From Rhina ancylostomus (lineage: Eukaryota): a stretch of DNA of 64,000 nucleotides. Position numbers and translations under genes: made by a program. The notes beneath the pieces were generated by a model. The model was not told the DNA's origin. It was given only the letters and a program-made list of their open reading frames with translations, and made no database searches. The stretch spans positions 43,286,235 through 43,350,234 of the forward strand of contig JARFYF010000063.1 of NCBI GenBank assembly GCA_030265395.1, in the 5' to 3' direction. Positions 29,732 through 61,894 of the stretch are shown piece after piece (the first letter of the stretch is position 1; each line of letters starts with the position of its first letter).

Positions 29732-29784
<53 letters not shown>

Positions 29785-40077: not shown

Positions 40078-40163
40078 CTAATGGCATTCATACAAGTCCT
40101 TTGTTATGCTTCTTTTCATATAAGTAGCTTTCTGGTTCACTGGATCAACCTTGTAGGATTTAG
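40078..40163 (-). CDS. PRG4: PRG4 terminal coding exon
   Basis: Strong pyrimidine tract ttttag|AKSYKVDPVNQKATYMKRSITKDLYECH*; phase 1 fits; ends Y-x-C-x-stop like human WYNCP*. Confidence 0.85.
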
Positions 40164-43100
40164 CTAAAATGGAGAGAAGTGAAGGAAAGATCAAACATGT
40201 GCAATATTTAGGTTTAAAACAGAACTGAGGAGTTGCTTCCTTCTACCGTATGGATTGGAAAGGAAATTAAAACAATGTTGTAACATTGAAATTTGAAGCA
40301 CTTACCATGTTAGTTTGTACAGCAGTTCCTTTGATTATACTATAAATGAGATTGTTATAGTTAAATTATTTTTCAGTGGTTAACCATGGGGAGGTGGTGG
40401 GGAGATATTTAGCTCCGTCATAGAATTTTAATGCTAATGAGTTCACTGTTCATAAGCAAACTGCTTTTACATAGGGTTATTTCTCTTTTCCATTTGTTGT
40501 TTTTATCTCAATATGATTCTAGTATAACAACAGGATTCTTTTTCACCTGCCATCACTACTGATGGGATTATGGAATCTATAGCAATTCCAAAATTTTAAG
40601 ATTAAGTAAATTAAACACCATTTTCAGCTGAAATCAAAAGGCAACATTCCCCAGGTTCTGGAAATTTAAAATGAAAAAGAAAATGCTGGAAATACTCTGC
40701 AGGTCAGTCAGCATATGTGGAGAGAGAAATGGAACTATCATTTCAGGTTCTGGTGAAAGACCTTGAATATTAACTGTTTCTCTGGATGCTGTCTGATTTG
40801 GATATTTACATCTTTTTCCATTTTGAGTATTGTATGAGGTGCTGTGAGCTGTTTCCTTTGAAATACTGGATGATGCAATGCTTGCAACAACGTTACGACA
40901 ATTTTTAATGAACTGCTGCAGGAACAGAAGACAATATAATTCTTTGTACCCAAACTACTGGCCTTAAGCTTGTATCCATGCATCTTGCTATCCTTGTCAA
41001 AAAAAAATTATTCCTTTTGGTCTTAAGGACAAGAATATGAAGTCTAATTTGATTCTGCTCTCTGATTTGCATTCCATACCATTTCAAGCTTTAAGCCCCT
41101 TAATTGTGTTTAGAATTTTCAAAGTGACACGTACAAAGTCAGGTTTGTACAACTCTGCTTCATAATTTAGTGCTGTAAATTCTGCTATCCCAGTAAATTA
41201 ATGGTATTATCTTCCAAGGCCACTAGATCTTTACTGAGGTAAGGTGCCAAGTACTGCTTCTGAGGTTTGACCAAACTTGTGTCATTAAAACATCCCTCAT
41301 ATGAACCACAAATTACTTGCCATATTAGTGTTTTATGATCACTTAAATTGTGGAACCCAAGTGAAATTGCTTTTGGAGTAATATGTACAGGTCTGGTCTC
41401 CATACCTAAAGGAGGAGATATCTGTGGTAGAAGGAATGCAACAAAGATTCATCAGATTAATTCCTGTGCTGAAGAGTTTGTCGTACAAGGAAAGACTGGG
41501 CCTTTTCTCTCAAATCCGAAAGACTTGAGAAATTACGTCAGTGTAACATACACAGGTGAGACGGGTTAGGTGCAATGTTTCTCTGACTGGGGTGTGTAAT
41601 ACCAGTGTCTCTTGGGGGTTAGCCATTTAGAGCTGAGGAGAAAAATTTCCACCCAAATTGTAGTGAATCTTTGGAATTCCCTACCCAAGGGGACTGTGGA
41701 AACTGAGTATACTCAACGCATGTCCTTGGATGTTAAGGATTTGAGGGATATGGGCTTAGTGCAAGCAAGTACTGAAGTGAAAGAACAACTGATCTTTTTG
41801 AAAGGTGCAGCAGGTATATGGAGTGGAAGACTCCTGCTTTTGTTCTTTTTGCACCTACCCATTGGCTTGTAGTATTTTGTATATTAAGATGCCTAATTCC
41901 TTTTACTCGATCAGTTCCCAGTTTTGCCATTAAGCAAATGTTTTGATTTGTCTTCCACCTTTCCCAGGAGGACGACATCACAACTCTCCCAAGAGAACTA
42001 TTTTAGTAAGTTTTCTTCCATCAATATTTTTAGTAAATTTCCTGCTCTCATTTTTGCAACTAATTGAGCTTCTTAATGTTTTTCTGCAAACTTGGATATA
42101 AATCTTTATTAAAGTATGATGAAATGCTATTGTCCCAGTGTAACAGTCTACGTTCTGGGATACAGCCAGTCTATGTTCTGGGATACAGCTTGCTAATTAG
42201 AAAATTCCCTTTATCCCATCTTCTAAATAAACATATATTTTGCTAAATAAACAGTAAATGCCCTCGAAGTATGAAAGGACAACGTGAGTAGGCAATCTAT
42301 TGACTTCATGATTTAACAAAATTTAAACATCCATCAGACACAATCTGCCATTCACATATGTCTGCTAAATTGCTGTTCAGCTCATGTTTGTCTAAATACT
42401 CCACTTGAAATAAACTGACATGTCTAATATCTGCTTTCTAACTTGTTTAAATAATTAAGTAACATTTACTAATTCCATCTGCACTTTCCTCATCCTTTTC
42501 AAATGCCCTGTTGATTGCCAAGTGCACAGAAACAAATCAGTCTGAAACTTACCATGAGAGAGGACATAATATTCATATTTTTCTGCAAGTCTAGGATTTG
42601 GAAGTGAAATGGCTGATGTGACTCTTATAGGAAAACCAAGCCAGTTTTTTCTTATTGACATTTCAATGGAAAGTTGAGCTGAAAGAAAGTTAATTAGTAG
42701 TGGAAAGTAAATGTATTTTAATATGTAACATAAAATAAGTAATTGATGTATTTTCCTTTCTTTTTGGCTGACACACAACTCATTGCCCAGTTCAGTGACC
42801 CATTTTGGGAAAAACTCATTCTGTTTCTGGAACATCAGAGGGTGCTCTCCTATCATACAAGTGCTTTGAAGCATTGGTAGCGCAGTGGCTAATCTCCACA
42901 CTTCTAGCTCTCATTAGCTCCAGCCTGTTGATGAAAATTTGTTTTTCAGTGAAAGTCCAAATATTGGCAAGGGAATAATCAGGTTCGTGCAAGAGCAACA
43001 GGACTTGAGTTTCAATGGTCTCATCTGACAAGCAGCCCTTTCATGTAACAGTCAGCAATGCCATGGATAGTCAGCCTTGGATTTTTATCCTCTGGAATAG

Positions 43101-46100
43101 GATGAACTCCATACCCTCTGACTTTAGATTTGGATGATACCAACTAAAACTCAGCTAATTTGCCTTGATGGTGTGCAATTATGAAGTTGCAGGTCATCAA
43201 TCTTCCAGCAACCCCATGTGCATATGGGGAAAAAGAAGAAATTTACTTGGGTAATCACTACTAAAAGTAGATCTTGTAGAAATAGCTTTCAACCAATGTT
43301 CCTCATGCTCACTTCAAATAAATGCACTTAGGTTGAGAGGGATCATTGAACATTATCCAGGCTTTAATGATGCAGTTAAGATTTGTGACAATTTGCAGGA
43401 ATTTTGATTACACCATAACAGCCAGCTTCTAATTGCTGCCCATTATCAAAAAGGGTTGCTGTCATTTTGCTCTCAACTGTTGCACTATTTGCACATTCTA
43501 CCCCAAAAGTTTGACACATCTGTGTTTTTAAAGAAAATATGACCAAAAAGCTGCTGATGGAGAATGAGCAGTTTGTGGTTTTTCAAGTTGTTTTTGACCT
43601 GTTCCAGTGCAAGTTTTTTTGGATTAAAAACCAAAATTTAAAAAAGCTCCACACAGTTCAATTCACCAATGGGTTGAATCAGTTGCATCATTTTAGATCA
43701 TACCATTAAATGATTTGCAACTGAAAAAATTAAGACATCTTAAAAGAAACAGTTGCCCTAAATGCTACACAATTATAACTAGATCAGTCCCATTCAACAT
43801 TTGCAAAACTATCGTTAAATAACCACATAAATTAAGTAGCAAGAGTGATGGTTATTTTCATGTGGGTTCTGCAAAATTGTTCATTGTGTCATATGTTGAA
43901 GACGTACAAGATCTGATTTGCTATTGCATAACTATCATAATTTTCAAATGGTTGTACATAATGCCATACTTCAAACTGAGTTCAGAACAAAGTTTAAATT
44001 TTATATTTGCCCAATAAATTTGGTTAATTGAGGCAGATAAAATTACTGTTAATTGGGTAAAATTGTTTATTGGTATCTCAATTTTTCTTAATGCTCAAAC
44101 CCCATGAATCTTAACCTAGCCAATGATAGAAAATATCGCTGAACCATTAATTCATTGGACATTCAAATATAAAATTTTAATTTTTAGGAAGTTGACTAAC
44201 TTTAAACTCCACAAACTGGCTTCAAAACCACTAGCTTTAGCTACTGAATCTGAGCACACAAGAATTTTGTACCTGTTTTCTGCAGTTCCATGTTTTTTTG
44301 TATGGCCACCATTGCTTGCCTCCTGTAACGTTGCCTTACCACTTGATAAGTGTAGCTATGAGCACGTTCTTGTGGGCAAGATGTGACTAAATGAGAGTCC
44401 ACCCCCTCGATTCTGATTGACTTCAATTTTACAAGGCTTCGTGATGCCTCAATTTTCAAATGTTNNNNNNNNNNNNNNNNNNNNNNNNNNNNNNNNNNNN
44501 NNNNNNNNNNNNNNNNNNNNNNNNNNNNNNNNNNNNNNNNNNNNNNNNNNNNNNNNNNNNNNNNTGGAATATAGAACGTATTTTGATTAATGATGAAACT
44601 TTAGTCGCTGAATGACCATTTGTGTATTTGCAGTGTAGTTGTCGTTGCAAAAACGGTGTTCAAGGAGGAGTTACTTACGATGACAAGTAGCTAATTGGCC
44701 CATCAGGTCCACGCTAGCTGCAGCAGAGCAATCTGATCAGTCCTAATCCACCTCTTATTTCCCTTGCATGCCTTTCAACTCCCCTTCAATCCTAGTTCCA
44801 TTTGCCTACACTGGGGTTAATTTCCAGTGGCCAATTCACCTACCAGCACACCTTTGGTATGGGAAACCCACAGTTATAGGGGAAGCATGTAAATTTCACC
44901 CAGAACAGCAGTGGCGGTCAGGATCAAACTCAGGTTGCTGGAGCTGTGAGGTTGCCCTTGCTTGTTAACAATGTCTGATGCTTAATAATCAAATTGTGTA
45001 CATTGGGTGACATATGGAAAAATTCTATATGATAGATTGCATGTGTAAACTTCCATTAAGCAGAAAAAATAAATAGGAAAGGTATGTTTACAAGGGAACT
45101 GAAAAAGACCTCACCTCTTTTGAAGAAGTACACTGTTTCAGGTCTGTTACGGTATGCAGCCACTGAAAGAGCAGCTGTTATTTCCCCACTCAATCCTGAA
45201 AAGCCGTCTGCAATTTTTCGAGGATAGCCACTGTCCATGGCCCCATTCTGAAATCGCCAGTACTGTTCCCCCTATAAATTCAACAAGAACAAGTGCTATC
45301 GGAGAAGTTTCTATTGAAATGCAACGAGTATATTGACACACTTAGTCAAGCAGGTGGAAATTCAAATTAAACTTCTGTTGCATTGATAACATATTTCACT
45401 TGGTTCCTTTTAAATTCATCCTGCTGTACAATGGACAATTTGCAGGAAGATCGAGAAATGGAACTTAATGTTCATCACACTGCTTAGTTTTTACAGTATC
45501 TGAATTTGAATATACTGGCACACTTACCAAGTGGTATTTCCAAGTTAAGTTCTGCTGCTACTTTCCAAATAGTTTTTGCAATGCACTGCATTTTGGTGGA
45601 GCTGCTATATGCTTCCAAGCCCATGGCTAATACTCATGTTAAATAGATAACTCTGCAGGAGAATTAAACACAATGTACCTCTAGTTATGGCAGTTGCATT
45701 TTTGACTTCTGTTGAATTGTGGGCATGTCTAATCCAAATTTACCACCATTATCAGCAGTCTTGTTGACAAAAAAAGACCAGCTCATTGTTTGGTGGTATC
45801 ATTCAGGGAGAGAAACCTTTTTTGCATTTTACCCATACTCTTTCACCACCTCCTTTCTCAATGGCAGCTTGTGCTAGCCTCAATGGTCAGTGCAGAGATA
45901 AATGGAAAATAGATTGCAAATGCAGGAGTCCAGTTTCCTACACCGACTGATGTGGTCTTAATTCAAAGGTGTAATTGTAGACCCATATTTTCATGAGTTT
46001 AGGATGCTACTGCATCAGTTTGGTTGCCCTGCAATTCAGAATTTTGTAGTTCTTGTGAGCAACAACTTTGTAACTGATTGCACAGATGAAATTAAGCAGA

Positions 46101-49100
46101 AGACCAGAAGCCTTTGGTAATCTAATCTGGACTGAACAACCTGAAGGATGTTGGAGGCAGAACCTACAGTAACTATAATTGGATAAATAATTTGCAGGGT
46201 CACAAGGAAATGATGGTGCGTGGGACAAATTGATTTTCTTTTTCAAAGATCCAAGGCTGGACTAACTTTTTGCGTTCTGCTTCATTTAGAATATAAACAG
46301 GAAGAGAGGATGTACAAAATCTTGGTTTGGTTTCTTGAGAAAATTCATGAGAAAGTGTTAAGTCCGCAGCCATTCTGCTTTACAGCAATTCCAAACGTAA
46401 TGATGTTATTTTGTTATTAAATTTATTACTTCATTGGGCAAGCAATGGGACAAAGAACCTTACCTTAAAAAAATACGTATTTCCATTGCAGTTGCACCTT
46501 GTGAAGACTGTGTCTATTGGGGATGGAATGCCCCACACATCAGTGATCCTGCGAGGGTGCCCTAATGTTTGTCCTTTCTGGCTTATTGTCCAAAACAAAT
46601 GACCTGAAAACATACAAGCAAACCATTTGGTGAAAAGCTTTGTCAAATACAAAGGATGACTGGTATATAGGAATATTTTAAATTCTGGTAACTAGCTATT
46701 AATTATTACCAGGCAAACGATCAACAGCGTGATCAGCAGTGACTATTTAATGCCATTATATTATTGCCAAAGACGGTTGGATTTAAATTCCAATTGACTT
46801 AATCCTGTAATCCACCGGAAAACATTGTGCAGCACCACCCAGTCCCCTTGGTCAATGTGTTGGTTTCATTTGGGCAAGAGGTGAGCTGCAACATTTCCAC
46901 TTCAACAGACTTGCCCATTCTGACTGCCATTCACTCACTTTGGATTTGAAAAATATGACCTGCACCTAAAATTTAAAACATTTCAACGTGTTAAGTTAGC
47001 TTGTGATCAGTCCATATATTTTTAATCATGAGTAATTAATGATATTTGTCTAGAGTTGAGGCTCTGACACTTTCCCAGGGGTGGCGCCAAACTGTAAATT
47101 AATGTAACTTTATGGATCTGATTGCTGAGTGGCACGGGTTGTAATATGGCACCTTATGTCAGAATGTAAAAATAAATATTCAAAGATTGACATTGAGATA
47201 TTTTGTAAACCTCCAAAGTTTCCTTCATATCTTACCTCTAAAAATATATGTGGTTCCATTTTGTAGAGTTGTCAGAGCATCTGAAGGCTTCTTATTACAC
47301 AAATTGGAATCATTAAGACTGTCTAAAATGATAATTTTAATAATTATTGGACTTTAAAATCAAGAAATCATCCACATTTCATAACAGTTAACATTGATTG
47401 AAATTTGTCATTTCACATTTAGTTATATAATTCACTGACAACTTCAGGCTTGTGATATTCAACATCATGCGTCATAGAGGTGCAGTGAATTTATAGCATT
47501 ATTATGTTATGCCACATTAATGAAGTGGCTGTGTTTCCACAAAAGTTTAATTATTTTTCTCTGATGCTATCCCACAAATTATTATATTTACTGAATTCAG
47601 TTTCATAACTTTTCAAATTGAAATCAAGATAATATAGGTTACATGTCCATGACATTTTTTACTCTTCCTTTGCCTCATTTTACTTGTGCATATTTGGAGC
47701 CCTTTAGTTAGTTTTGTTTTCTGTTCAGAGTTCCCACATAGATACCCTCAGCGTTAATTACAATCAACAGCACGTAAATTGTATGCCCTACCTTCGTATG
47801 ACTGGGTTTTCCCAGTTGCCTGATCTCCCAGTTCTTGAGTTGGTTCCCTTACCATGTTATCACTCTCACCAGAGCTGGTGACCTATGAAATGAAAGACAT
47901 TTTAGTGCTTTTCTTTTAATCTAATGGAGGAGGCAGCTCTTCTTTTGGTGACAACATTTTGGTGTCAGTCTCAGGGTTTGCTGTATCTGGATAGCCAGTG
48001 GTGATATTCACTTCTTGTTTAATTGTTTACTGGCAGCCTTGGTGGCTTTGCCAGAAGTTTCTTTCTTAACAACTGACTTGATCACACCAACAACCACTGT
48101 CTGTCTCATTTAGCTTATTTGATTTTTCACTCAAATGGATGATCTTTTCCTGAGCTGAAACATTCTGTAGGAAAATGCTACAATTATGCTATTTGTCCCA
48201 ACAATTGATTAGACCAATATGATGTTTTTCAACTGGGCATAATTATGATACTGGAATATCTCAAACCTACATGGATCTTTTAAAAGCTGCATCATGCAAG
48301 TCAAGTGAACCTATTTCCAACAGAACAGTGAATTATGTAGCACACACCGTCAAAGAAAAGCATTCTGCTTCCAAAAAAAATTTCTGCCAGAAATAGTTGG
48401 AGGTGGAAGAAATATTCTACATCTCTTCTGCTGAAACCACATTAGGCTGACACACTCCTCTCACTGCTGCTTTCTTGCATTTAGGGCTTGCAAGGTCATG
48501 AATTGCTGAAGGGGTCCTCTCTGGAGATAGTGGGGTGGGGAGTGCCAGCTTGTGTAATTCTACTGAGAGAGCCTAAAGCACTAACCAACTTATTTCTGAT
48601 TTGAGTGACAGCTTCTGTCTCAAATATTTGAGAGATTAATGGCACAAGGAGTTTGGTGCCGGAAGCAGGAGGTATCACTTTTAAAATATTTGTCGTATGG
48701 AATTTTCTGGACAATATGCAATTGGAAAATGAGCTGAATTCAACGTTCAAGGTGGACATTTGAGTTACAAGGTTCACTTCTTTTGAAATAGCTGTTTTGT
48801 TAACAAACACACTGATTCTGGATAAGCAATGATTCTGCATTATTAGATTTTGAGATCTTTAAAATTTGAAAATTTCATTGATTTAACTATATGAATTCTT
48901 AGAATTGACAAGCTATCTTTATTTATCTTTGTTTATATTTGTCTTTATTTATGTTAAGATCTGTTGCCTTGTGTTTAACAGGAACATTGGGCTTTACATT
49001 TTCTCTTTTTAAGTTTGAATCTGTGGCAATTGATTCTTCTGTACTGGTCTTTACTTCTATATCTAAGTTAATAGGTTCCACAGTTACTAGTTTTTGCAAG

Positions 49101-52100
49101 ATATTTACCCGTACAACTTCCACTTTTTCCAATATTGGATTTGTGGCTACAGGTCTCACAAGTACAGTGGGTTGCGATATTCTCTCTTTGTTTAAGTTTG
49201 AACCAATGAAAGGAGTTTCCTGAGGAATAGTANNNNNNNNNNATGGAAGCTGTTAAGATGAAGATTACTTTGTTTTAAAGTGGTGATTGTCATTTTTTCT
49301 TTATCCAAGAACTTAGAGTTATTGGGGCCATCTTCTGGAATAGTGCGTCCTTCTTTGTTTACCTTTGGGAACATTGTTACTGCTTTTGCAGGAAGAAAGG
49401 ACCGTATGGTTATTTTGTTATCTAAATTCCCTGTATCCAAAGTAATAGCTTGATTTTGAGGAAGGTATGATTTTTTTAGATCAATGATTGCAGGCTTTTT
49501 TGAAAATATGGGTTTCATGGTTTTAGATTCCATGGTCTCACTTTCAGCCACAGTGGAAGCTGGTCTTCCTTTATTCGGATTTTCCAAATACATGGTGCCA
49601 TGATCAGGAGGAATGCGTATTTTTTTGTTCATGGAGTATAAACCAACGGAGCCACCTTTTTGAATGGTGGACATTGACATTCCTTCATTTTCAATTTTAG
49701 AATGTATAGTCCCATCTCTAGGAACTGCAGGATTTGTTATTCTTTCCTTGTCCATGTTTGGGAGCGCAGTTACAGCTTTTTTAGGATGAATGGTTTGTAT
49801 TGATTCTGCATAATCTGGGTTGTCAGGAATGAGAGTACTGTTTGGAGCAAAGGAATGCAAAATTTTAGAATTTGTGTTTTTCGATCCTTCAGGATTAATT
49901 GTTTTTGTCGTTTCTTCTTTCTCCAAATATTTAGAATATGAGGAACCATTTTCATGAACTGTGAACATTCCTCCTTTGGTGCCATCTTCAGTAACGGAGG
50001 CTGTAGTTAACTCTTTGTTATCATGATCCGTGAATCTAAATACAGGAATGGNNNNNNNNNNNNNNNNNNNNNNNNNNNNNNNNNNNNNNNNNNNNNNNNN
50101 NNNNNNNGAATATGCTGCTGTTCCTTTACCCAAGATTTTAGAATTTGTGGAGCTATCCCTGTTACTAGAAGAAGCTGTCACCCCATTGTCCAAGACTTTA
50201 GACTCGATGGTTGTATACTCAGTGACAGGATACACTACGGATCCTTTATCCAAGAGTTTAGTATTTGAAAAACCATTGGTAGGAATAGAGTGCGCTGTCA
50301 CTCCTCTATTCAAGGATATAGAATCTGTGGGGCTACCTTTGTTACTGGAGGATGCTGTCACTCCTTTGCCCAAGGTTTTAGATTCTGTGGGAACGGAGAT
50401 AGGAATGGAGGCTGTTGTCATTAATTTATGCAGTATTTTGGAATTTGTGATGCTACCTGCAAGGACAAAGGGTGTTGTTATTCCTTCATCCAAGATTTTA
50501 GAATGTATAACCTTATCCACAGGAATAGCAGGCACTGTCATCCTGTTAACCATTTTGGAATCTCTGGTCCCATCTTCAGAAATAGGAGGTGTTGCCATTC
50601 TATTAGGCAAGACTTTGTGAAAAGATGTTGTCATTCCTTTATCCAGGGTTTTATAATTGATGGATGCAAGTTCAGGAACAGAGGGAGTTGTCATTCTGTT
50701 ATCCAAGGTTTTGGAAAATGTGGAAATATCCTCAGTAACATTTGTAACAATAGAAACATCTTCAGGACCAGTGGTCAATGTTCCTTTATTCAGTACATCA
50801 GGATATATGGAAGACTCTTTTGGGATAATGTATGTTGTTATTCCTGTGTCGAGGATTTTAGTTGCAATGGAAACATCTTCATGGACAGAATGAATGGTCC
50901 CATCTTCAGAAACAAAAGATGTTATTATTTCTGTATCCAAGGATGTAGAATCTATGAAACTATCTTCATGACTGAGGGGTGCTGTCAATCCATCATCTAA
51001 TACTTGAGAATCTGTAATCCTATCATCAGGAAATAGAATGTAGGGTGGTGGTGTTTTATTATTCAAGGTTTCTGAATCTATGGAAGCATTTTCAAGAACA
51101 GAGGGAGTTGTTATTCCTTTATACAAGATTTTAAAATCGGTGGAATCACCTTCAGGAACTGAGGACATTGTTGTTTCTTTGTCCAAGAGTTCTGAACCTG
51201 TGGGATCATTTTCAGAAACAGAGAGTCTGGTGCTTTTATCCACTATATTAGAATCTGAGGAAGTCTCTTTTGGGATGATGTATGTTGTATCCAGGATTTG
51301 CAAATCCGAAATTCCATCTTGAGGAACAACTTTAAGCAAGCCTGTAGAATCTCTTGTCACCTCTTTGGTAACAAGAGGAGATCTTGACATCTCTTTGTCC
51401 AAGATTTTAGAATCTGCAGTCTGCTTTTCAGGAACTAGGGGCATTGTTATTCCTGTATGCATGATTTTAGGATCTGTGGATTCGTGTACAGGAACAATGG
51501 TTGATATTTTACCTTTATCCAAGATTGTAGAGTCTGTGGAAGCGTCTTTATGAACTAAGGGAACTATCGGTTGTTTGTTCAAGATTTTTGGATCAGTGGA
51601 ATTATCTTGAGGAACTGTGGTTGTTATTCCTTCATCTAAGATTTTGGAATCCATGGTCCCACCTTCAGGAACAGATAAAGTTATCCTTGCATTATCCAAG
51701 ATTTCTGAACCTGTGGAAGCATCTCCAGCAATAGTGGAAGTTCTCAGTTTATTACCCAAGACATTAGAATCTGTAATCCCAATTTCAGGAAAAGGGGCAG
51801 TTGTTACTCCTTTATTCATGGTCCCATTAGCAAGAACAGAAGATGTTGTTAATCCTTTATCCAAGATTTTGGAATCCATGAATCCATTTTCAGGATCAGT
51901 GGGAGTTGCTGTTCTGTTATCCATGTTTGCATCTTCGGGAAATGAGGATAATATTATTTGATGAAAAGTTTTAGAGTCTGTGGTTTCACCTTCTGGAACA
52001 GAGGATGTGAGGATTCCATCATCCAAGGTTTTTGAATCTGTTGAAGCAACTACAGGAACAAAGGGAGTTGCTCTTTGATTAATTAAGTTTCTAGAACCCA

Positions 52101-55100
52101 TGGAAGCCTTTTCAAGGAAAGTGGGTGCTGTCATTTCCGACTCCAAGGTATTTGTTTCTCTGGGAGTACCTTGTGGGATAAATGTTGTTTTATCAAAGAT
52201 TTTGAAATCCGAGTTCACATCTACAAGACCAGAGGAAGTAGTCATTCTGTTATCTAAGATTTTAGAAACATCCTCAGCAGCAGAGGGACTTGTTATGCCA
52301 TTGTTTAGAATTTTAGAATCATTGGTCCGATCTTCAGGAATGGAGATTGTCATTTGTGCGTCAAATATATTTGGAACTGTTGCAGCTGAGCCTGTTGTCA
52401 TTCTTGTGTCAGAGGTTTTAGGTTCTATGGAAGCAGCTATTGCAACAGGTGATAATGACATTTCTTTTTCAATGATGCCACTTTCAGGAATAGTGTTTGT
52501 TGACATTATTTTATTCAGGATTTTAGAATATGTTGTCCTGTCTTGAGGTACAGGTGGTGTTGTTATTCCTTTCGCCAAGATTTTTGGATCAGTGGAATCA
52601 TCTTTGGAAACAGTTGTTGCCATTGTTTTATCCAAGATTTTAAAATTGGTGTTCACATCTGCAGGAATAGAAGAAGTTGACATTTTGTTATCCAAGATTT
52701 GAAAATTCGTGGAAACATCCTCAGTAACTAAAGGCATTGTCACACCATTGTTCTGGATTTCTGAATCCATGGAATCATCTTCAGGAGTATCAGTTGTTGG
52801 TACTTCATACTGGATTTTAGAACCATTAGTAGTATCTTCAGGAGTGGAGAGATTTTCCATTCCTTTTTCCAATTTACTAGGATTTAAGGAAGCTTCTTCC
52901 GGGATAATCTGTGTTGTCCTTCCTCTATCCAACAGTTTAACTTCTATGGAAGCATCTTCTGTCATAAAGGCTGTAGTCATTCCCTTATCCAAGAATATGG
53001 AATCCATGGTACCATTTTCAGGAACAGTGTCCGTTGACATTATTTTATATGGGATTTTAGAAGACATTATTGTATCTTGAAGAATAGGTGATGTTGTTAT
53101 TACTTTGACCACTACTTTAGAATTAGTGGAATCATCTTCAGGAACTGTGGTTATTATTCCTCTATCCAAGATGGTCCCATTGTCAGAAACAGAAGGAGTA
53201 GTCCATGCATTATCTAAGGCTTCAGAATCATTGGAAGCATCCCTAGCAATAATGGGCGTTGACAATATTTTACCCAAGGTATGTGTACCCAAGGTACCTG
53301 TGATATCATCTTCAGTAAAAGGGTCTTTCGTTATTCCTTTATTCACAGTCCCATTATCAGGAACAGAAGTTGTTGTTATTTCTTTATCTACAATTTTAGA
53401 ATCTAGGAATCCATCTTCAGGATCAGTAGGAGATGCTGTTCTATTAGTCAAAAATGTAGATGCCGTATTTACATCTTCGGGAAATGATGTCATTGTTGGA
53501 TGAAATGTTTTGGAATCTGTGGTTTCACCTTCTGGAACAGAGGATGCGATAATTCTATTATCTAAGGCCTGTGAATATGTAGAAGCATCTGCAGGAACAG
53601 AGGAAGTTATCATTCCATTAATAAGTGTATTAGAACTTCCAGAAGCCTTATCAGAGATGGTGTGTGTTGTCAATCTTGTCTCAAAGATTTTAGATTCCAT
53701 GGAAGCATCTTGTCTGGTAAAGGCTGAAGTCATTGTTTTACCCAAGATTTTAGATTCTGTGGTCACCGCTACAGGAACAGAGGAAGCTGTCATTTTGTTA
53801 TCCAAGATTTTAGAACCGGTGGAAATGTCCTCATTAACTGAGGGCATCGTATTCCCATTATTCCAGATTTTTGAATCTGCAGAATTGCCTTCAGGAACAT
53901 TTGTTGTTACTAGTTTAACTGACATTTTGGAATCATCGGTCCTGTGTTCAGGAACAGAAAATGCTGTCGTTCCTTTGTCCAATGTAGTAGAAACTGGGGA
54001 AGCCTCTTCTGGGACAGTGGGTGTTGTTATTCCCCTGTCTGAGTGTTTGGCTTCTATGGAAGCAACTTCTGTGGTAAAGGCTGCAGTCATTCCTTTATCC
54101 AAGAATAAGGAATCCATAGTGTCATTTTCAGGAGTTATGTCTGTTGATGTTATATTATCCAAGATTTTAGAATATGTTATCCTTTCTTGAGGAACAAGTG
54201 ACATTGTTATTCCTTTAATTTTTGGATCAGTGGAATTTTCAGGAACTGTGGTTGTTATTTCTTTATCCAAAACTTTGACATCTATGGTCCCATCTTCGGG
54301 AACAGACAGAGTTGTGTTTGCAATATCCAAGATCTCTGAGTCTGTGGAAGCAACTGCAATAATAGTGGGGGTTGCCAGTTCATTAGCAAGAATATTAGAA
54401 TCTGTTATCCCACTTTCAGGAAAAGGTGCAGTTGTTATTCCTTCACTCACGGTCCCATTATCAGGAATAGAAGATGCAGTTATTCCTTTGTCCAAGACTT
54501 TATAATCTTTAGGATCAGTGGGAGTTGCTGTTCTATTATCCATGCCTGCATGTTCAGGAAACGAGGACAACATCATGATTTGATTAAATGTTTTGGAATC
54601 TGTGGTTTCACCTTCTGGAACAGAGGATGTGATAATTCTATTATCTAAGGCCTGTGAATGTGTAGAAGCATCTTCAGGAACAGAGGAAGTTGTCATTCCA
54701 TTAATCAGTGTATTAGAACTTCCAGAAGCCTTATCAGAGATGGTGTGTGTTGTCAATCCTGTCTCAAAGATTTTAGATTCCATGGAAGCATCTTGTCTGG
54801 TAAAGGCTGAAGTCATTGTTTTACCCAAGATTTTAGATTCTGTGGACACCGCTACAGGAACAGAGGAAGCTGTCATTTTGTTATCCAAGATTTTAGAACT
54901 GGTGGAAATGTCCTCAGTAACTGAGGGCATCATTTTCCCATTATTCCAGATTTTTGAATCCACAGAATTGTCTTCAGGAACATTTGTTGTTACTAGTTTA
55001 ACTGGCATTTTGGAATCATCAGTCCTGTGTTCAGAAACAGAAAATGCTGTCGTTCCTTTGTCCAATGTAGTAGGAACTGGGGAAGCCTCTTCTGGGACAG

Positions 55101-58100
55101 TGGGTGTTGTTATTCCCCTGTCTGAGAGTTTGGCTTCTATGGAAGCAACTTCTGTGGTAAAGGATGCAGTCATTCCTTTATCCAAGAATAAAGAACGTGT
55201 AGTGTTGTCTTCAGGAATTGTGTCAGTTGATATATTGTTCAAGATTTTAGAAAATGTTATCCTTTCTTGAGGAACAAGTGACATTGTTATTTCTTTAATC
55301 AAGATTTTTGGATCAGTTGCTCCATCTTCAGGAACTGTGGCTGTTATTCCTTTATCTAACATTTTAGAATCCATGGTCTCACCTTCAGGGACAGACAGAG
55401 TTGTCTTGACTTCATCCAAGATTTCTGAATCTGTGGCAGCATCAGCAATAATAGTGGAAGTTGCTGTTTTATTATCCACGTTTGCATTTTTGGGAAATAA
55501 GGACAGTGACATTATTTGCTGAAACGTTTTCCGATCTGTTGTTTCATCTTCTGGAACAGAGGATGTGATGATTTGGTTATGCAAAGTTTTTGAATCTGTA
55601 GAAGTAAGTACAAGAACAGAGGGAGTTGTTCTTCCATCAGCTAATTTGCTAGAAACCATGGAAACCTCTTCAAGGAAACTGTGTGTTATCATTTCTGCCT
55701 CCAAGACTTTTGTTTCCCTGGGAGTATCTTGTGGGATAAAGGTTGCTGTCATAATATTATCCAAGATATTAGGTTCTGTGGTCATATCAAACGGAATAGA
55801 GGAATTTACCATTTTGCCATCCAAGATTTTAGAACTTGTAGAAATGTCCTCAGTAACTGAGGGCATGGTCACCCCATTGTTTTGGATTTTTGAATGCATG
55901 GAATCATCTGCAGGAATACTGATTGCTATTTCTTTATCCAGGATTTTAGAATCATTGATCCTATCTTCAGGAACAGAGAAAGTTGTCATTTCTTTGTCAA
56001 ATATACTTGGAACTGAGGATGTTTCATCTGGGGCAATGTATGTTGTTATTCCTGTGTTTGAAGTTTTAGGTTCAAAGGAAACAACTTCAGTGTTTGAGGC
56101 TGTTGGCATTCCTTTATCCAAAAATATAAAGCCAGTGGTGCCATCTTCAGGAACAACATCTGTTGATGTTATTTTGGAACTTGAGGATATATGTCTGGTG
56201 ATCGACAGCATTGTTGCCCCGTTGCTCATGATTTCTGAATCCATGAAATCATTTTCAGGAACAGTGGTCATTTTCATTCCTTCATCCAAGATTTTGGGAT
56301 CCGTGGACCCACTTTCAAAAACACTGGATGTTGTCATTAAGTTATCTAAGATTTTAGAATCCATCTTCCCATCTTGAAGAACAGAAGATGTAGTCATTCC
56401 TGTTTGCAAGAGTTTCGAATCTATGGAATTAACTTCATTAGCAAAGGGTGTTGTGAATCCTTCAGTTAAGACTTCAGAATCCCTTGTCTCATCCTCAGGA
56501 ACAGATAATGTTGTCAATACAGTATCCAGGATTTTAGAATCAGTGGTTCCATCTTTGGGAATAGATGACGGTCTGATCACAATGTTGGTAATTTTAGAGT
56601 CTGCCATTCTATCAACAGTAACAGCAGACATTGTCATTATTTTCATCAACATTTTTGAATCCATGGTAGTAGCTTGAGGAACAGAAGGAATTGTTATTCT
56701 ATTATCCATAATTTTAGAATCTTTAGAATAATCTGTAGGAACAGAGGGAGTTGTAATTTTGTTAGAACTAATGGAAGGATCTTCAGCAACTGATTGCATC
56801 GTTATTCCATTGTTCAGGATTTTTGAATCCATGGAATTATTTTCAGAAACAATGGTGGTTGCTTTTTCCAGGATTTTAGAATGATTGACCCTATCTTCAG
56901 GAGCAGAAAGTGTTGTCATTCCTTTATCCAATATACTAGGAACTGAGGAAGCCTCTTTTAAAGCAGTGTGTGCTATTCGTGTATCTGTGGGTTTGGTTTC
57001 TCGGGAAGCAACGTCTGCAATAGGGGCTGTTGTCATCCCTTTATCCAAAAATACAGAATCCGAGGTGTTATCTAAAGGAAAAGGTGACGTTATTTCTTTA
57101 ATCAAGATTTTTGAATTTGTGGAAGCCACTTCAGGAAGAGTGGTTGTTTTTATTCCTTTATCCGTGACTATAGGATATGTATACCTACCTTCAGGATCAC
57201 TGTATGTTGATGTCCTGTTATCCAAGATTTTAGAATCACCTTCAGGAATAGAATGAGTTGTCATTTCAGTATCCAAAATTTTTAAATTGATGGAAGCATT
57301 TTCAGAAAATTGTGTTGGAAATTTCTGATCCAAGATTTTGGAATATGTGATCCTATCTTCAGGAAAAGGGGAAGTTGTTATCATTTGATACGGGATTTCA
57401 GAATTAGTCGCCTCACCTGTCATAACAGGGAATGATGTCATTCCATTATTTGACATTCTTGAATTTGTAGAAGCATCTACAGGAACAAAGGAAGTTGTCA
57501 TTCTATTATCCAATATTTTAGAACCCATGGAAGGCTCTTCAGGGACAGTGTGTGTTGGCATTCCTGTGTCCAGGATGTTATAATCCACTAACTCACCTTT
57601 AGGAACACTATAGGTTGTGACTTTGCTAACCAAATACATATTCCCACCATCAAGAACAGAAGATGTGGCCATTCTTGTATTGAAGATTTTAGCATCTGTG
57701 AAACTATCTTTATCAGCATAATGTGTTGTCAATCCTTCATCTAAACTTTTCACATCCCTGGTCCCATCCTCAGGAACAGAGGGTGTCATCACTACCTTAT
57801 CCAAGGTTTCAGGATCGCTTGTCCTATCCTCAGGAAGTGGGGAAGATGTCATTATTTTATGCAAGATTTTAGATGCTGTGGTCTGACCTTCTGGAACAGG
57901 GAGTGATGTCATTCCCTTATCTGAGATTCTAGCGTGTGTGGAAACAGCTGCAGGAAGAGCAGAAGTTGCCATTCCACTCTCCAGTATTCTCGGACCAGCA
58001 GTAACCTCCTCAGGGTCAGTGTTTGTTGTCATTCCCCTGTCCAAGATTTCAGAATGTGGGGAAGCATCTTGTGGGATGAAGGATGTTGTCATTCCTTTAT

Positions 58101-61100
58101 CCATGATTTTAGAATTAGTGGAATAATCTGCAGGAACAGAGGGAGTTGTCATTCTATTATCTAGGGGCTTAGAACTCTTGGAAACATCTTCACTAACTGA
58201 GGGCACCGTCATGCCATGGTTTGGGATTTTTGAATTGAGGGAATCACTTTCAGGAACAGTCATTGTTTCTTTATCTGAGGTTTTAGAACCATTAGACCTG
58301 TCTTCAGGAGTGGAAAATGTTGTCATGCCTCTTTCCAAGAACTCAAGAACTGAGGAAGCCTTTTCTGGGGCAGCGTGTGTTGTTATTTGTGTGTCTGAGA
58401 TTTTAGGTTTTGTGGAAGTAACATCTGCACTAGAGGGTGTGGTCATTCCTTTATGCAAAGATACAGAATCTGAGGTTCCATCTTCAGGAATAGCTGTTGT
58501 TGTCATTTCTTTATATAGAATTTTTGAATTTGTGGCAGCATCCTCAGGAACAGTAGTTGTTTTCATTCCTTTATCCAGGATTTTGGGATTTGTGGACCTA
58601 TCTTCAGGAACATCATACATTGTCATTCTGTTATCCAAGGTTTTAGAATCCATGGTCCTGTCTTCTGAAACAGAAGGTGTTGTCATTCCATTTATCATGA
58701 TCGATCCTTTAATTGCTTTAGCACTTCCATTTTCTGTAAAAGTAAGTTGTGATAGATCAGAAAAAAATGATAATTCACTAACATGTCATCTTTATTTACT
58801 TGGCACGTACTCCCATTCAGCTACTAATTAATTACTTTGTAGTGGAAACATCATTTATGGACAATAATCTTAGAAATGACAATATTCTGTCTTCCTCCAC
58901 AGGTGATTTTCCTTTTGTCCCTATTTATTCACTCATTAACTTAAGGCACAGGCAAATCACTTCAGAACCTTACAACTCCATGTTTTAGCTGATATTGCCT
59001 TTTGCTAATATCTTATTCCTAGAAAAGTGTTGAGACACACTGTCTCCTGGTTATTCAAAATATTCATTTGATACTTCAACAGATCTTATTCTTGTTGGAT
59101 GTATCTGTGGTGCCTCAATAGTCCCTACCTTTCTGGCTGGATTTCCTATGCCTCTACCCCCAAAGGATTCCTGTATTTAGTGAGATCCATGTGTTTGTAC
59201 GTCCCTAATGTTGCCAATGGACCACTGTCTGCTCCACTAAGGTTTCTGGCTCGAGAGATTCCATTTCTAGTCTGTCTGGCAAAGCCGTTCTTCCTCAAAC
59301 AAGTTTCTTTCAGCTATTGTTAAAAGTCATTCATTACCTCTGTGTCCCCTTAGCCTTTTCCAGACCTTTAGTTAAGAGAACATTACCAATCATTTCTCCA
59401 TCTACTATCCTTCCTCTAATTAGATTTCATTAGTTTCAATAAATATCTTGAGAATTTCTGCCCAGTCTAATAGTCCCCGGCCTTTTGCCTTCCATAACAT
59501 GATCTTCTTGTCCTACAAGTTAAGCAGCCCATCCACACTGGAAAATATCCTGCATTATTACTATGAAGCACTTCCATAGAATAAATCCTTTACATTTTAA
59601 AGTCTGGAATCTGCAAACAAAATCTGACTGCACTTGCTGCAGAAATAAATATAGTCTTTGACGATAGTACTCATTTATGAAGGTTTAGACACATGGCTGA
59701 ACTCCCTGTCACTCATTTTGTTATATAAAAAAACTTCTTCATACTTAGCGTCATAGGTTCTTTCTTGATTTTCACTTCATCATCCAAATGGCTGGCAGAA
59801 TCTTGTTGGTACAATGTATCACTGATTATCTTGGGTTGCTCTGTTGTTGGTTTTCTTGTGGAGCTAGTGAACAGTAAACTTGATCTTGTTGTTGGTATGA
59901 ACGTGGGACTTTTCCAAATATCTGTGATCAAAGTAGTAGCAGGTTGTGAACCATGATAATTTATTTTTGTTGTTTTAATTTAACGTTTTCATAATCAAAA
60001 TGCAATTTATGCCTGCAATAGAATAAAGGGAAACAGTGTGGCTTAGAAGTTGATCCTGGGCATTCGAAGTGTGCTAAAAGATTTTTGTATGGCATGTCAA
60101 CAGATACTTTGTTCATGGGTCTTCTACAGCAGAATTTAGTGTCACCTGAAACCCAGAGCAAGGCTGGATTAGGGGCAGGAAGGGCTGGTGGTGGGGAACC
60201 TGATTGGAGCCGAGGATGGGGATGGCTGTCGATCGAAGCCCGAGAGTGGGATGGTTAGAGACTAGAACCTGGCGAGAAGTTTGGACAGAGATCAGTGCCA
60301 GAACATTGGGGAAGAGGTAGGTGGGATGGGGGAAGACTGATAGAAGATCAGGCCAGATGGTAGCCAGAGGCTCTGGAGAGATCGTCGCAATCATATTCCA
60401 CATGGGCAAAAGCAATTTCAGATGTGTAACTTCAACAAAAACAAAGAACCACATCCAGTTTTCTAGGTTGTTGCACTATTGCACATGGCAACATCAGTGA
60501 GAGATGAGGAATAGAGGTATGGTGGTTGATATCTATAAATCTGTTCAACCAGGAGCAATATTTCTGAATTCAGGGTCAGGAAGCAGAAAGAATGCTATAA
60601 TGGGAAACTTGATGGTCTTTTGTTATCCGTCTTTAAAATTGCAGTAAAAAGAGTGAGGCTTTCTGAATTTTTAAAGATTTACTATGTGATTGAAGACAAA
60701 TTACACCTCTGCACAAGTTACTAGTCATTTATTATTCAATTGACATCAACAAGGAGAGTAAACAGCATTTTGTATAACTATTCTGTGCCTCATAATGAAG
60801 AAAGAACCTCATTGGGTTCAAAAGTGCAAGGTACCTGTGCTGGCGGAAGTACCAACACAAAACAAACTAGATTTTGCCCAGATAATTTTTAAGATAGTAT
60901 AGTTGGATTCATCTAATCTTGTAATTATTGACTTTGGCTAAAATATATTTTCTTTTATAAAGCACAGAGAAAAATGGAAAAAGCAAAAGACATGTAGCCA
61001 CACATTAGCGCCAGGATAGTCGATCCTACCTCTTCCACAGCTTGCAACATAATCAGAGCAGCAGTCACCGTATTTCTTGCAGTCAGGATCACACTGACAT

Positions 61101-61894
61101 GGCCGCCCGCGTTCGTGTTGCTCAAAGCAGCGTCCAGAACAGGAGGTTTCTGTCCAGAGTCAGAAGCGATTTGGTATACAATACAATGCAAAAGGACTGT
61201 ACAAAGTGCATCGTCACATCGAGTAGACTGGGGAGACTGGTATAGTACTGAGTCAGGCATTTCAGTAGCATCGCTTCTGGAACAGTATTGGAAGTTTAGG
61301 AATGAGCACAACTATTGAACCCCTATCTTGGGTGTGGGCACAATTAAACTTGATAGTGAAACTTTCCCATTCACAAATACCTTGTTGACAATATGCAGAG
61401 ACATAATGAATAACCAATTGGCTGAGATACACGCGTGTGTCTGAGCCTCTTGGGGTTGTTCACCAACATAAGCCACTGCATTCTGCGGAGAACTGGAGAG
61501 GATTGCCAGTTGATCAATTCATTTTATTCACCAGATCATGAAATAAAAACGATATTATCATGACAGTACTAAATAAAATCCATTACTATCAAAGAACAAA
61601 TGTAGCCACTCTTACGTACTTGGTTCCTATATCATATTCAGGTTTAAAGATAGTTTGAAATCAGAGTACAGGATCTTATCTTTGAAGAAGCAAAGACGTG
61701 CTTTTTACTTGGTAGATATTCCTCAGAATATTTTAACAGAATTGTTTAAAGACCTACTCGGTCGCTTTAGGCTGCTGGTTANNNNNNNNNNNNNNNNNNN
61801 NNNNNNNNNNNNNNNNNNNNNNNNNNNNNNNCATCGTCACAGTTGCAATTGTGGCTTCGATCGTACTTAGAACCACATCTTCCTCTACAGCTGT
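40078..61894 (-). CDS. PRG4: Proteoglycan 4 / lubricin: 2 SMB domains, giant mucin domain, hemopexin repeats; signal-peptide exon not located
   Basis: SMB Cys patterns, S/T/P-rich repeat exon, PRG4-diagnostic hemopexin peptides (RRITDVWGIPSPIDTVFTRCNC, YWRF..GYP, PETVYFFKR, VTSAISLPN), and tail-to-tail adjacency to TPR as in human. Confidence 0.95.
41350..41850 (+). mobile_element. Degenerate CR1 3' fragment
   Basis: TQIVVNLWNSLPKGTVE and WSPYLK-like remnant. Confidence 0.6.
42553..42678 (-). CDS. PRG4: PRG4 hemopexin-region exon
   Basis: ttcag|AQLSIEMSIRKNWLGFPIRVTSAISLPNPRLAEKYEYYVLSH|gtaagt. Confidence 0.93.
44273..44464 (-). CDS. PRG4: PRG4 hemopexin insert exon (5' end probably inside the N gap 44465-44564)
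   Basis: ...SCPQERAHSYTYQVVRQRYRRQAMVAIQKNMELQKT|gtacaa resembles human CPGRRPALNY...VRRRRFERA; phase-1 donor; the far side of the gap ends in acceptor-like ttctatattcca. Confidence 0.6.
44690..44955 (-). mobile_element. Degenerate V-SINE
   Basis: gccaattcacctaccagcacacctttgg...aggatcaaactcaggttgctggagctgtgagg. Confidence 0.6.
45115..45271 (-). CDS. PRG4: PRG4 hemopexin exon
   Basis: tatag|GEQYWRFQNGAMDSGYPRKIADGFSGLSGEITAALSVAAYRNRPETVYFFKR|gtgagg. Confidence 0.96.
46464..46603 (-). CDS. PRG4: PRG4 hemopexin exon
   Basis: ttcag|GHLFWTISQKGQTLGHPRRITDVWGIPSPIDTVFTRCNCNGNTYFFK|gtaagg. Confidence 0.97.
47236..47322 (-). CDS. PRG4: PRG4 first hemopexin-region exon
   Basis: tttag|DSLNDSNLCNKKPSDALTTLQNGTTYIFR|gtaaga (human DETNICNGKPVDGLTTLRNGTLVAFRG). 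Confidence 0.94.
47792..47882 (-). CDS. PRG4: Putative PRG4 bridging exon between mucin and hemopexin regions
   Basis: tctttcatttcatag|VTSSGESDNMVREPTQELGDQATGKTQSYE G|gtaggg; phase 0 in, phase 1 out, matching the next exon. Confidence 0.6.
48008..48109 (-). pseudogene. 5'-truncated EEF1A (EF-1 alpha) retrocopy fragment, C-terminal 33 codons plus stop
   Basis: MRQTVVVGVIKSVVKKETSGKATKAASKQLNKK* matches the eEF1A C-terminus (D)MRQTVAVGVIK.V.KK...GK.TK.A.K; no eEF1A-like sequence seen upstream. Confidence 0.8.
49109..58733 (-). CDS. PRG4: PRG4 mucin exon (~9.6 kb, ~3200 aa); 3' boundary inferred
   Basis: Acceptor cttacttttacag| at 58733 is in frame with the 3168-aa ORF. The ORF's stop at 49192 follows a 10-N gap, and another frame continues TIPQETPF...EKVEVVR to a phase-0 donor CGG|gtaaat at 49109. 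Confidence 0.85.
49980..58700 (-). repeat. Coding tandem repeat, 60 bp / 20 aa unit (consensus ~SKILDKGMTTSSVPEDGTxD), roughly 140 degenerate copies
   Basis: Units align down the 60-nt lines (e.g. 58501-58700; + strand motif gtcattcctttatccaagattttagaatc...tcttcaggaacag); copy number estimated as length/60. Confidence 0.92.
59745..59921 (-). CDS. PRG4: PRG4 linker exon between SMB2 and mucin
   Basis: cacag|DIWKSPTFIPTTRSSLLFTSSTRKPTTEQPK...KIKKEPMTL|gtatga; 177 nt, phase 1-1, S/T/P/K-rich. Confidence 0.7.
61030..61149 (-). CDS. PRG4: PRG4 somatomedin-B domain 2 exon
   Basis: gacag|TSCSGRCFEQHERGRPCQCDPDCKKYGDCCSDYVASCGR|gtagga; 8-Cys SMB pattern, 120 nt, phase 1-1. Confidence 0.95.
61758..61894 (-). 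CDS. PRG4: PRG4 somatomedin-B domain 1 exon (interrupted by 50-N gap)
   Basis: SCRGRCGSKYDRSHNCNCDD[gap]...TSSLKRP|gtaggt; first four SMB cysteines visible; frame across the gap not verifiable. Confidence 0.75.

Follow-up and report, generated by a model that had tools for sequence, protein, structure and literature searches.

The window, meaning the whole 64,000-nucleotide stretch of the Rhina ancylostomus genome analysed here, holds what its domains and exon order identify as a single, intact-looking batoid orthologue of prg4, the gene encoding lubricin (PRG4), together with the 3' half of the nucleoprotein gene tpr (Table 1). In genomic order across the 64-kb window, two somatomedin-B exons lie upstream of a mucin exon and hemopexin exons lie downstream, and the features of the family are present: N-terminal somatomedin-B domains, a PRG4 hemopexin-like C-terminus and, between them, a single large exon that codes for an S/T-rich mucin region. 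The sequence-only reading had taken the giant exon for that of a lubricin, and the domains, the exon order and the hemopexin tree agree with it. The hemopexin region matches that of Hypanus at 92%, falls among the batoids (99/99) beside Hypanus and Mobula (80/84), and all 11 matches of the exon at 45115 are named proteoglycan 4, 4b or 4-like. The last two coding exons match orthologues at 65-87%, and the linker exon at 59745 is missing in the Narcine and Rhinoraja records. The remainder of somatomedin-B exon 1 lies inside a 50-N gap (61782-61831), and the ~12 codons that precede the basic linker piece in orthologues were not found, with a 100-N gap (44465-44564) close by. Four orthologue N-termini set against 61900-64000 gave no significant match for a signal peptide exon (28-90% of shuffles score equally well), and this exon probably lies outside the window. 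The end of tpr is 190 nt from the prg4 stop, tail-to-tail, as are PRG4 and TPR in mammals, the two being neighbours in human. The Pfam scores of tpr are under the curated cut-offs because single exons were scanned, and Rfam gave 0 matches.

Table 1. Features of the prg4 locus and its neighbour (window coordinates)
Feature	Position	Strand	Evidence or remark
Somatomedin-B exon 1, 5' half	61832..61894	-	Pfam PF01033 E 9.6e-5; tblastn from orthologues
Somatomedin-B exon 2, 120 nt, phase 1-1	61030..61149	-	PF01033 E 4e-13
Linker exon, 177 nt	59745..59921	-	51-66% identity to orthologues
Giant mucin exon, main stop-free part	49243..58733	-	3,163 codons with 128 clear 20-aa units; 56-N gap inside at 50052-50107
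Module 1 (aa 28-282)	57886..58650	-	part encoded by batoid RefSeq records
Conserved batoid internal junction site	57888..57892	-	no GT at 57892; phase-1 GT donor 57888, 4 nt on, score 9.0
Modules 2-7	51988..57237	-	core ~200-270 aa each; landmark-unit spacing 149-469 aa
Shark-type tail of exon, ~last 270-300 aa before 10-N gap	49243..50050	-	spacer element as in shark arrays
Candidate phase-0 donors for long isoform	49109..49363	-	49363 score 8.3 (before 10-N gap); 49109 score 5.5; window-trained donor matrix
93 codons after 10-N gap	48953..49232	-	homologous to shark exon 3' end; no GT at matching end
First in-frame stop on read-through	48923..48925	-	9 codons beyond 48953; AATAAA at 48949 and 48923
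Short exon after mucin exon, 91 nt, phase 0-1	47792..47882	-	63% to Hypanus
First exon of C-terminal hemopexin-like region	47236..47322	-	78-88% to orthologues
Hemopexin exon	46464..46603	-	PF00045 E 3e-5
Hemopexin exon	45115..45271	-	PF00045 E 3e-10; 78-90% to 11 elasmobranch PRG4s
Basic linker exon piece	44273..44386	-	orthologue comparison
Penultimate coding exon	42553..42678	-	orthologue comparison
Last coding exon, terminal Cys and stop	40078..40163	-	orthologue comparison
3' half of tpr	1..39887	+	coiled-coil exons; PF07926 E 2e-6 and PF25785 E 0.007 on one exon

The minus-strand stop-free frame of the mucin exon runs from 58785 to 49195 (3,197 codons, 23 of them X), with a splice acceptor at 58733 and two gaps inside it, of 56 N (50052-50107) and 10 N (49233-49242). 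It had been described as a single frame of ~9.6 kb and ~3200 aa, which stands for the 3,163 stop-free codons up to the 10-N gap, but both gaps have to be crossed and, if the 10-N gap is taken at its stated size, the part that ends at 49109 is shifted by one base. In three shark proteins this gap corresponds to 7 residues, from which its true length is predicted to be 20 nt; this would make the frame continuous.

Human PRG4 is described as having two somatomedin-B domains, one large mucin exon and a hemopexin-like C-terminus (PMC11940178; bioRxiv 2025.09.15.676417), and within its 1,404 aa the mucin domain (aa 232-1085) is Pro/Thr-rich, of polyproline II character and made of an 8-aa KEPAPTTP repeat (PMC13067954, PMC11925169). 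The domain plan in the window is alike, but the mucin region is 3,124-3,264 aa long, made of a 20-aa unit and poorer in Pro (T 14.0, S 11.9, D 8.1, E 5.8, K 6.8, P 6.4-6.5 and M 3.8-3.9%). It was rightly said to be much longer than the mammalian region, the frame being 3.7-3.8 times the human mucin domain (PMC11925169), to lack Cys and to use a repeat other than KEPAPTT, of which there are 0 matches in the mucin exon; KEPAPTT is a mammalian trait and is not required for orthology. S+T amount to 26% (822 Ser/Thr), P+T+S to 33% and Ile/Leu/Val/Phe/Met to 25.7%, with a net charge of -4.9 per 100. Two further claims on composition do not hold, as the supposedly many N-x-S/T sequons are at chance level (35 against 38 +/- 5 in 500 shuffles), and the supposed richness in Asp/Glu and Met (D+E 14.1%, M 3.9%) is ordinary among orthologues (D+E 13.2-17.0%, M 2.0-4.7%; 10 usable rows of 11, with Heptranchias left out, its cut having included the C-terminal domain). 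Internal mucin exons near or above 10 kb are reported in human for MUC5B (10.9 kb), MUC17, MUC4, MUC12 and MUC16 (PMC3467050); these likewise have a single internal repeat exon, although the gene families differ and the likeness drawn here is one of exon layout.

The repeat has a period of 20 (lag-20 identity 0.218, against at most 0.090 for the best lag from 15 to 44 in 20 shuffles), and a profile built from the exon itself recovers 128 units (20 shuffles: mean 0.2, maximum 2), spaced by exactly 20 in 88 of 127 cases and with a mean identity of 48% to the consensus DSKILDKGMTTSSVPEDAST. The earlier count of roughly 140 copies is fair, with truncated units visible between the clear ones, and unit positions 3-9 have a raised helical hydrophobic moment, in line with the amphipathic segment proposed (0.526 against 0.397 +/- 0.016 for within-segment shuffles, 0 of 200 reaching 0.526). 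The units are grouped into at least seven larger modules, with self-alignment offsets of 930, 1089 and 1869 nt in the array; divergence is lowest between modules 4 and 5 (dS 0.145), the youngest pair, and dS is 0.32-0.55 for the remaining pairs. There is no Pfam match for the repeat and no PDB match at E 1. AlphaFold2 gave module 1 a pLDDT of 39 and a pTM of 0.10, which with a shallow alignment of 15 sequences is weak evidence of disorder. A folded solenoid repeat protein was considered and rejected (pLDDT 39, no PDB match, best Atlas score 0.75, a lead-level score).

A related unit, of 20 aa in rays and 21 aa in sharks, is common to the PRG4 records of both groups. The batoid RefSeq 'proteoglycan 4b' records (Hypanus XP_059840485.1, Mobula XP_062920099.1, Narcine XP_069794287.1, Rhinoraja XP_078263972.1, Amblyraja XP_032884076.1 and others) likewise have the 20-aa unit, collinear with module 1, and matching flanking exons, but the proteins are of 523-855 aa and their exit junctions are without GT in the window. 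All 11 batoid records examined leave the exon at internal donors after 79-470 aa, which makes transcripts that skip the long exon a live risk, and the annotation of related rays covers only the first tenth of the long frame. The exon ends of Mobula X2 and X3 are 8 codons apart, Hypanus X2 enters the exon 256 residues late, and Narcine codes for 67 aa past the batoid junction, which fit window aa 281-350 best (score 190, next non-overlapping 130). In mouse a mucin-less Prg4 isoform is reported (bioRxiv 2025.09.15.676417).

Giant acidic S/T-rich arrays before PRG4 hemopexin sequence are found in two carpet sharks, Chiloscyllium punctatum, the brownbanded bamboo shark (chiPu_0008213, GCC29771.1, 'hypothetical protein', 3,222 aa), and Rhincodon typus, the whale shark (EukProt g48537.t1, 3,021 aa). 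Both are unnamed ab initio gene models with arrays of ~2,900-3,100 aa and a related unit, but the unit is of 21 aa, overall identity to the window is 24-25%, and the ~337-338-aa modules carry a spacer element that in the window is confined to the last 300 aa. In whale shark the RefSeq record departs from the frame at aa 1091, whereas the ab initio model reads on for another ~2,070 aa. PRG4 of Heptranchias and Carcharodon has a matching exon start and end and a 21-aa unit, but a mucin exon of merely 597 and 1,079 aa. Shark units are under-counted by the profile trained on the window (0-8 per protein), and the case for shark homology is therefore made from the periodicity, the alignments and a reading of the sequences. 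No batoid protein with modules 2-7 was found in a search near the full length (7,997 candidates scored, returning the 2 shark models), at shorter length (8,000 candidates scored, 4 known batoid records) or in an exhaustive search with aa 300-1449. The last gave 48 matches, 4 already known and 44 unnamed; the unit is absent in 40 of the latter, found once in 3 and four times in 1, and none has the hemopexin or SMB motif tested.

That the modules arose in this lineage, after its split from other rays whose exons are truly short, is the independent expansion of the sequence-only reading, and on present evidence it is possible, if somewhat unlikely. The AU test does not reject a tree in which the seven window modules are constrained to one group (p 0.254 and 0.146 under two models), the branch of module 1 is short, the protein searches found no long batoid record, and the shark arrays have other periods (337-338-aa modules, 21-aa unit). 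However, module 1 is nearer to six batoid records (54-64% identity) than to its sister modules (44-50%), which are at 29-45% to those records; the best trees group it with other batoids (bootstrap 80-91), dS between modules reaches 0.32-0.55, and the Narcine extension and the shark-type 3' end show an ancestral exon that ran beyond the batoid junction. An origin of the modules before the batoid radiation is thus favoured by the identities, though the AU test does not establish it. Independent expansion may hold at most for the module structure, since the unit is common to elasmobranch PRG4s and two carpet-shark models are of similar length. A like repeat and size in annotated fish PRG4, which that reading had weighed against itself, is therefore found in part, but in unnamed ab initio models and not in named orthologues. 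This is a question of history, and a lineage-specific origin is compatible with the mechanism preferred below.

Both ends of the exon are homologous to shark records. The tail before the 10-N gap scores higher against shark than against batoid mucin parts (Carcharodon alignment 255), and 48953..49232 scores 180, 160 and 105 against three sharks (shuffle maxima 80, 67 and 70), its alignment to the truncated whale shark record not being significant. The exon had been ended at 49109, which is doubtful, as the donor is weak (5.5, above just 3 of 25 known window donors) and homology to sharks extends for another 52 codons, to 48953, where the window has AT in place of GT at the counterpart of the shark exon end, with the stop coming after. 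Among intronic GTs, 9 of 174 reach a score of 5.5 and 3 of 174 reach 8.3; stronger donors lie inside the first 520 codons (57417, 57597, 57189 and 57888), that at 57888 having a reading frame that fits only the first hemopexin exon. Both conserved internal batoid donors are without GT in the window, therefore the standard short form could not be made as in relatives. Long-form donors that are middling or weak, with scores also seen in introns, the stronger early donors, the AT at the counterpart of the shark exon end, the two assembly gaps in the frame and the three protein searches that yielded no batoid protein with modules 2-7 count against the explanation preferred below.

Neutral drift is expected to bring 189-257 stops into the frame per unit of divergence, therefore a stop-free frame is unlikely past 0.012-0.016 substitutions/site. 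No stop and no visible frameshift occur across 3,236 codons, the offset is a multiple of 3 in 10 of 10 long self-alignments, and dN/dS is 0.64-0.92 in all 14 module pairs, at dS 0.145-0.55. By these measures the mucin frame is under coding constraint; dN/dS is only slightly under 1, and the individual gap lengths between modules are uninformative (multiples of 3 in 37 of 83). A mutation rate of 7e-10 per bp per generation is given for the epaulette shark (PMC10587355), and as sharks mutate slowly 0.012-0.016 substitutions/site can span a long time. Such slow mutation would suit a fossil exon, in which only short isoforms (the first 280-520 codons) are now made and modules 2-7 with the shark-type tail are recently intronic and undecayed, as would the 11 of 11 batoid records that end within 470 aa, the terminal donor matching sharks that has no GT, and the early position of the strongest donors. 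It is nevertheless decidedly unlikely, with 3,236 codons clear of stops and visible frameshifts, 0 profile matches to decayed units in the remaining window (best intronic E 0.045, non-significant), and a standard short form that the loss of both conserved internal donors would prevent.

Very unlikely is a terminal exon, in which translation would run to the stop at 48925-48923 and polyadenylation would follow, giving a secreted SMB-mucin of ~3,400 aa without hemopexin whilst short spliced forms keep the hemopexin end. Homology and openness do run 52 codons past 49109 to 48953, with the stop 9 codons later and AATAAA at hand, but AATAAA is frequent in AT-rich intron and both copies lie before or on the stop, not downstream; moreover there is a usable phase-0 donor at 49363, and in a draft assembly an error of the consensus, or an allele, could account for the AT. 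Over-expanded or misjoined repeats are hardly credible even in a draft with 12 N runs, two of them within the frame, as the closest modules are only ~80% identical at the DNA level and Tandem Repeats Finder gives just two short 60-nt arrays in the exon (71% match), leaving nothing near-identical to over-expand, and both ends are collinear with orthologues.

The explanation that we prefer, and consider on balance probable, is that this batoid prg4 orthologue has a mucin exon made from an old elasmobranch unit, which reached 9.4-9.8 kb as multi-unit modules were duplicated in tandem, with the long frame still translated in some tissue. Alternative splicing between nested donors and acceptors would let one gene give short and long lubricins. 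The constraint on the frame, the nested exon ends of Mobula and Hypanus, the long whale shark model and the Narcine extension speak for it. The long form would be ~3,600-3,700 aa and, with a chain length per residue of 0.3-0.36 nm, up to roughly 1 micrometre. By analogy with mammalian lubricin the product would be secreted, its Cys-rich ends binding surfaces and partners and its disordered middle, with 822 Ser/Thr, carrying O-glycans that make it a hydrated brush or loop for boundary lubrication; dense O-glycosylation and lubrication are here carried over from work on mammals and zebrafish (PMC11925169, PMC4951194). The brush would be sparser and Pro-poor compared with that of human, and the four conserved hydrophobic positions per unit could be weak stickers.

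The giant exon is no one-off invention and no new gene family or mechanism, as similar sizes lie unnamed in public protein sets, and the comparison suggests that the mucin exon is annotated too short in the RefSeq models of shark and ray PRG4. In the literature searched no description of an elasmobranch PRG4 repeat was found. Elasmobranchs are reported to have cavitated synovial joints, those of skate being shown with aggrecan and CD44, not lubricin (PMC11856278), and Prg4 function has been shown in bony fish (PMC4951194). A wider reading, speculative and itself unlikely, is that elasmobranch lubricin is length-tunable, nested splice sites giving a mucin of ~80 to ~3,200 aa that annotations mostly record as short, with giant forms having evolved separately in carpet sharks and in rays through the amplification of different modules. 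Within this reading, as the conserved internal and ancestral terminal donors have lost their GT, the exon would have been rewired here to a micrometre-scale, sticker-bearing lubricin or to a hemopexin-less gel-forming mucin. A lubricin brush differing from that of human in length, Pro content and hydrophobic pattern would offer a natural test of what boundary lubrication needs.

The gene is, close to certainly, the PRG4 (lubricin) orthologue. Two somatomedin-B exons (SMB1 and SMB2) and a linker exon lie upstream of the giant mucin exon, and downstream a 91-nt exon is followed by six pieces of the hemopexin-like region, which has 92% identity to Hypanus sabinus and is placed by its tree within batoids (99/99), beside stingray and manta (80/84). 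One hemopexin exon used as query returned 11 shark and ray proteins from 27 candidates, every one named proteoglycan 4, 4b or 4-like. The 3' half of tpr lies on the plus strand with its stop 190 nt from that of prg4, an arrangement that is the same in mammals; polyadenylation hexamers are so placed on both strands that the two 3' UTRs may overlap. With four orthologue N-termini as queries, no signal-peptide exon was found in 61900-64000. A segment between SMB1 and SMB2 resembles a decayed SMB2 copy, with protein scores above 98-100% of 500 shuffles for three orthologues and no significant similarity to SMB2 at the DNA level. About 12 codons that orthologues have before the exon piece at 44386 are absent from the assembled sequence, and a 100-N gap may hide a small exon containing them. 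Fragments in the tpr introns are presumably LINE-like, from their likeness to fish repeats, and gave no informative match in Pfam.

Features of the window (donor scores come from a small matrix built on 25 donors of the window)
Feature	Position	Strand	Remark
SMB2-like segment	61381-61482	-	102 nt, AG/GT ends, in-frame stop
Long open frame	58785-49195	-	3,197 codons, 23 unknown
Giant exon acceptor	58733	-	exon start
Phase-1 candidate donors	57888, 57597, 57417, 57189	-	scores 9.0-11.1
56-N gap	50052-50107		crossed in frame
In-frame candidate long-form donors	49363, 49109, 49055	-	scores 8.3, 5.5, 4.8
10-N gap	49233-49242
Match to shark exon end	48953	-	AT next, then stop 48925-48923
Open stretches in intron	47883-48952	-	one of 120 codons, 48499-48858
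Missing ~12 codons	44387-45114	-
prg4 end	40078	-	Cys-His-stop
tpr stop	39887	+
Polyadenylation hexamers	39947, 40016	+
Polyadenylation hexamers	40038, 39731	-
LINE-like fragment	3804-5117	-	tpr intron
LINE-like fragments	near 25000, 27700, 36500		tpr introns

The exon lies in the one long open frame of the window and runs for 3,163 codons from its acceptor to the 10-N gap, with neither Cys nor KEPAPTT in its translation, as the sequence-only reading had suggested. Its period of 20 is strong (lag-20 identity 0.218, against at most 0.090 in 20 shuffles), and 128 units are recognised by a profile trained on it, where shuffles give 0.2 and the six frames of the window outside the exon give none; spacings are exactly 20 in 88 of 127 cases and mean identity to the consensus is 48%. 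The amphipathic pattern also described in that reading does exceed shuffles, with hydrophobic residues at unit positions 4, 5, 9 and 14 (71-82% of copies), Ser/Thr at 2, 10, 11, 13 and 19 (59-73%), acidic residues at 1, 6, 16 and 17 and Lys/Arg at 3 and 7, whereas the supposed richness in sequons disappears (35 found, 38 +/- 5 in shuffles) and the acid and Met content, thought special, is inside the range of orthologues.

The unit occurs across the whole clade, and public gene models of two sharks match the exon in size. Over its first ~280 codons the exon is collinear with six batoid records, which are 48-65% identical to it in local alignments and contain the 20-aa unit, and shark PRG4 records have a visibly related unit of period 21. 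The mucin-exon part is 597 aa in Heptranchias and 1,079 aa in Carcharodon; the mucin part reaches 2,916 aa in a 'hypothetical protein' of Chiloscyllium punctatum and ~3,100 aa in whale shark when the RefSeq record is combined with an ab initio model, both being model-level lengths in which exon make-up is not visible. An unnamed 521-aa protein (P0042) has four repeat-profile matches without the tested SMB or hemopexin motifs. The giant exon is real and, as far as searched, undescribed: in searches of the open literature no paper was seen to describe a PRG4 repeat from sharks or rays, and in excerpts of PMC11856278 and PMC7217701 Prg4 appears only as background or in references.

Self-alignment resolves modules of ~15-18 units (offsets 930, 1089 and 1869 nt), with dS of 0.145 in the youngest pair and 0.32-0.55 in the other 13 alignments, and dN/dS of 0.64-0.92 in all 14. 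Module 1, the first part of the exon, is 54-64% identical to other batoids against 44-50% to its six sister modules, and the best trees place it with other batoids; as AU tests do not reject a tree uniting all window modules (p 0.254, 0.146), an old origin of the modules is likely rather than established. Narcine has 67 residues past the usual batoid junction that best fit window aa 281-350, and the last 300 aa, together with the 93 codons that follow the 10-N gap, correspond to the array and the exon end of sharks; both favour an ancestral exon longer than batoid annotations. In the record of Narcine, an electric ray (P0006), part of module 1 has been duplicated separately (aa 402-579), and the record ends at the second copy of the conserved junction. 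Because three sharks have 7 residues across the place of the 10-N gap, the true sequence there is predicted to be 20 nt long and to keep the frame open. Carpet-shark giants are built from other modules, which measure ~337 aa and include a spacer element, so that giant size has probably arisen more than once; the 'independent expansion' proposed earlier thus fits the separate routes to giant size and not the 20-aa unit, which is shared with relatives.

Only 79-470 aa of the exon are encoded in all 11 batoid records examined, and nested sites occur in relatives: each of the two Mobula species uses a pair of donors separated by 8 codons, and Hypanus X2 has an internal acceptor. Isoforms X2 and X3 represent the two Mobula species in these records and X2 represents Leucoraja (protein clusters P0007, P0009); their X1 isoforms could be longer forms or simply missing from the protein collection. 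In whale shark the RefSeq record exits the frame at aa 1091 and the ab initio model reads on. The window has no GT at either batoid donor position; its phase-1 candidate donors could splice straight to the first hemopexin exon. The score of 5.5 given to 49109 is also reached by 9 of 174 GTs in introns. Short open stretches rich in Ser/Thr/Pro/Glu in the intron after the exon look like decayed coding sequence, with no significant match to orthologues (best E 0.16).

It is possible that the frame of the modules recently went out of use. Protein searches found no batoid protein with modules 2-7. Under neutral drift, 0.012-0.016 substitutions per site would suffice for a 95% chance of a stop, and the divergence between modules is far above this, yet sharks mutate slowly (PMC10587355, in excerpt), which leaves room for recent disuse despite the open frame.

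The gene product would most likely be a secreted boundary lubricant, by analogy with excerpted work on mammals (PMC11940178, PMC11925169, PMC13067954) and zebrafish (PMC4951194), in which Cys-rich ends would attach to the surface and partners and the middle would be a hydrated chain bearing O-glycans. For module 1 AlphaFold2 predicted no fold (pLDDT 39; 15 sequences in the alignment), and searches of Pfam, PDB and ESM Atlas with the repeat gave nothing usable. As the long form has 822 Ser/Thr on a stretch 3.7-3.8 times as long as the human mucin domain, and is poor in Pro and rich in hydrophobic residues, a longer, sparser and more flexible brush than the human one is expected, perhaps with weak self-association. 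Exon size and isoform switching both have precedent, since human mucins also have giant internal repeat exons (PMC3467050, in excerpt) and mouse Prg4 a mucin-less isoform (bioRxiv 10.1101/2025.09.15.676417, in excerpt). Elasmobranch lubricin might be tunable in length through nested splice sites, with the exon rewired in Rhina ancylostomus, a proposal that we consider rather unlikely.
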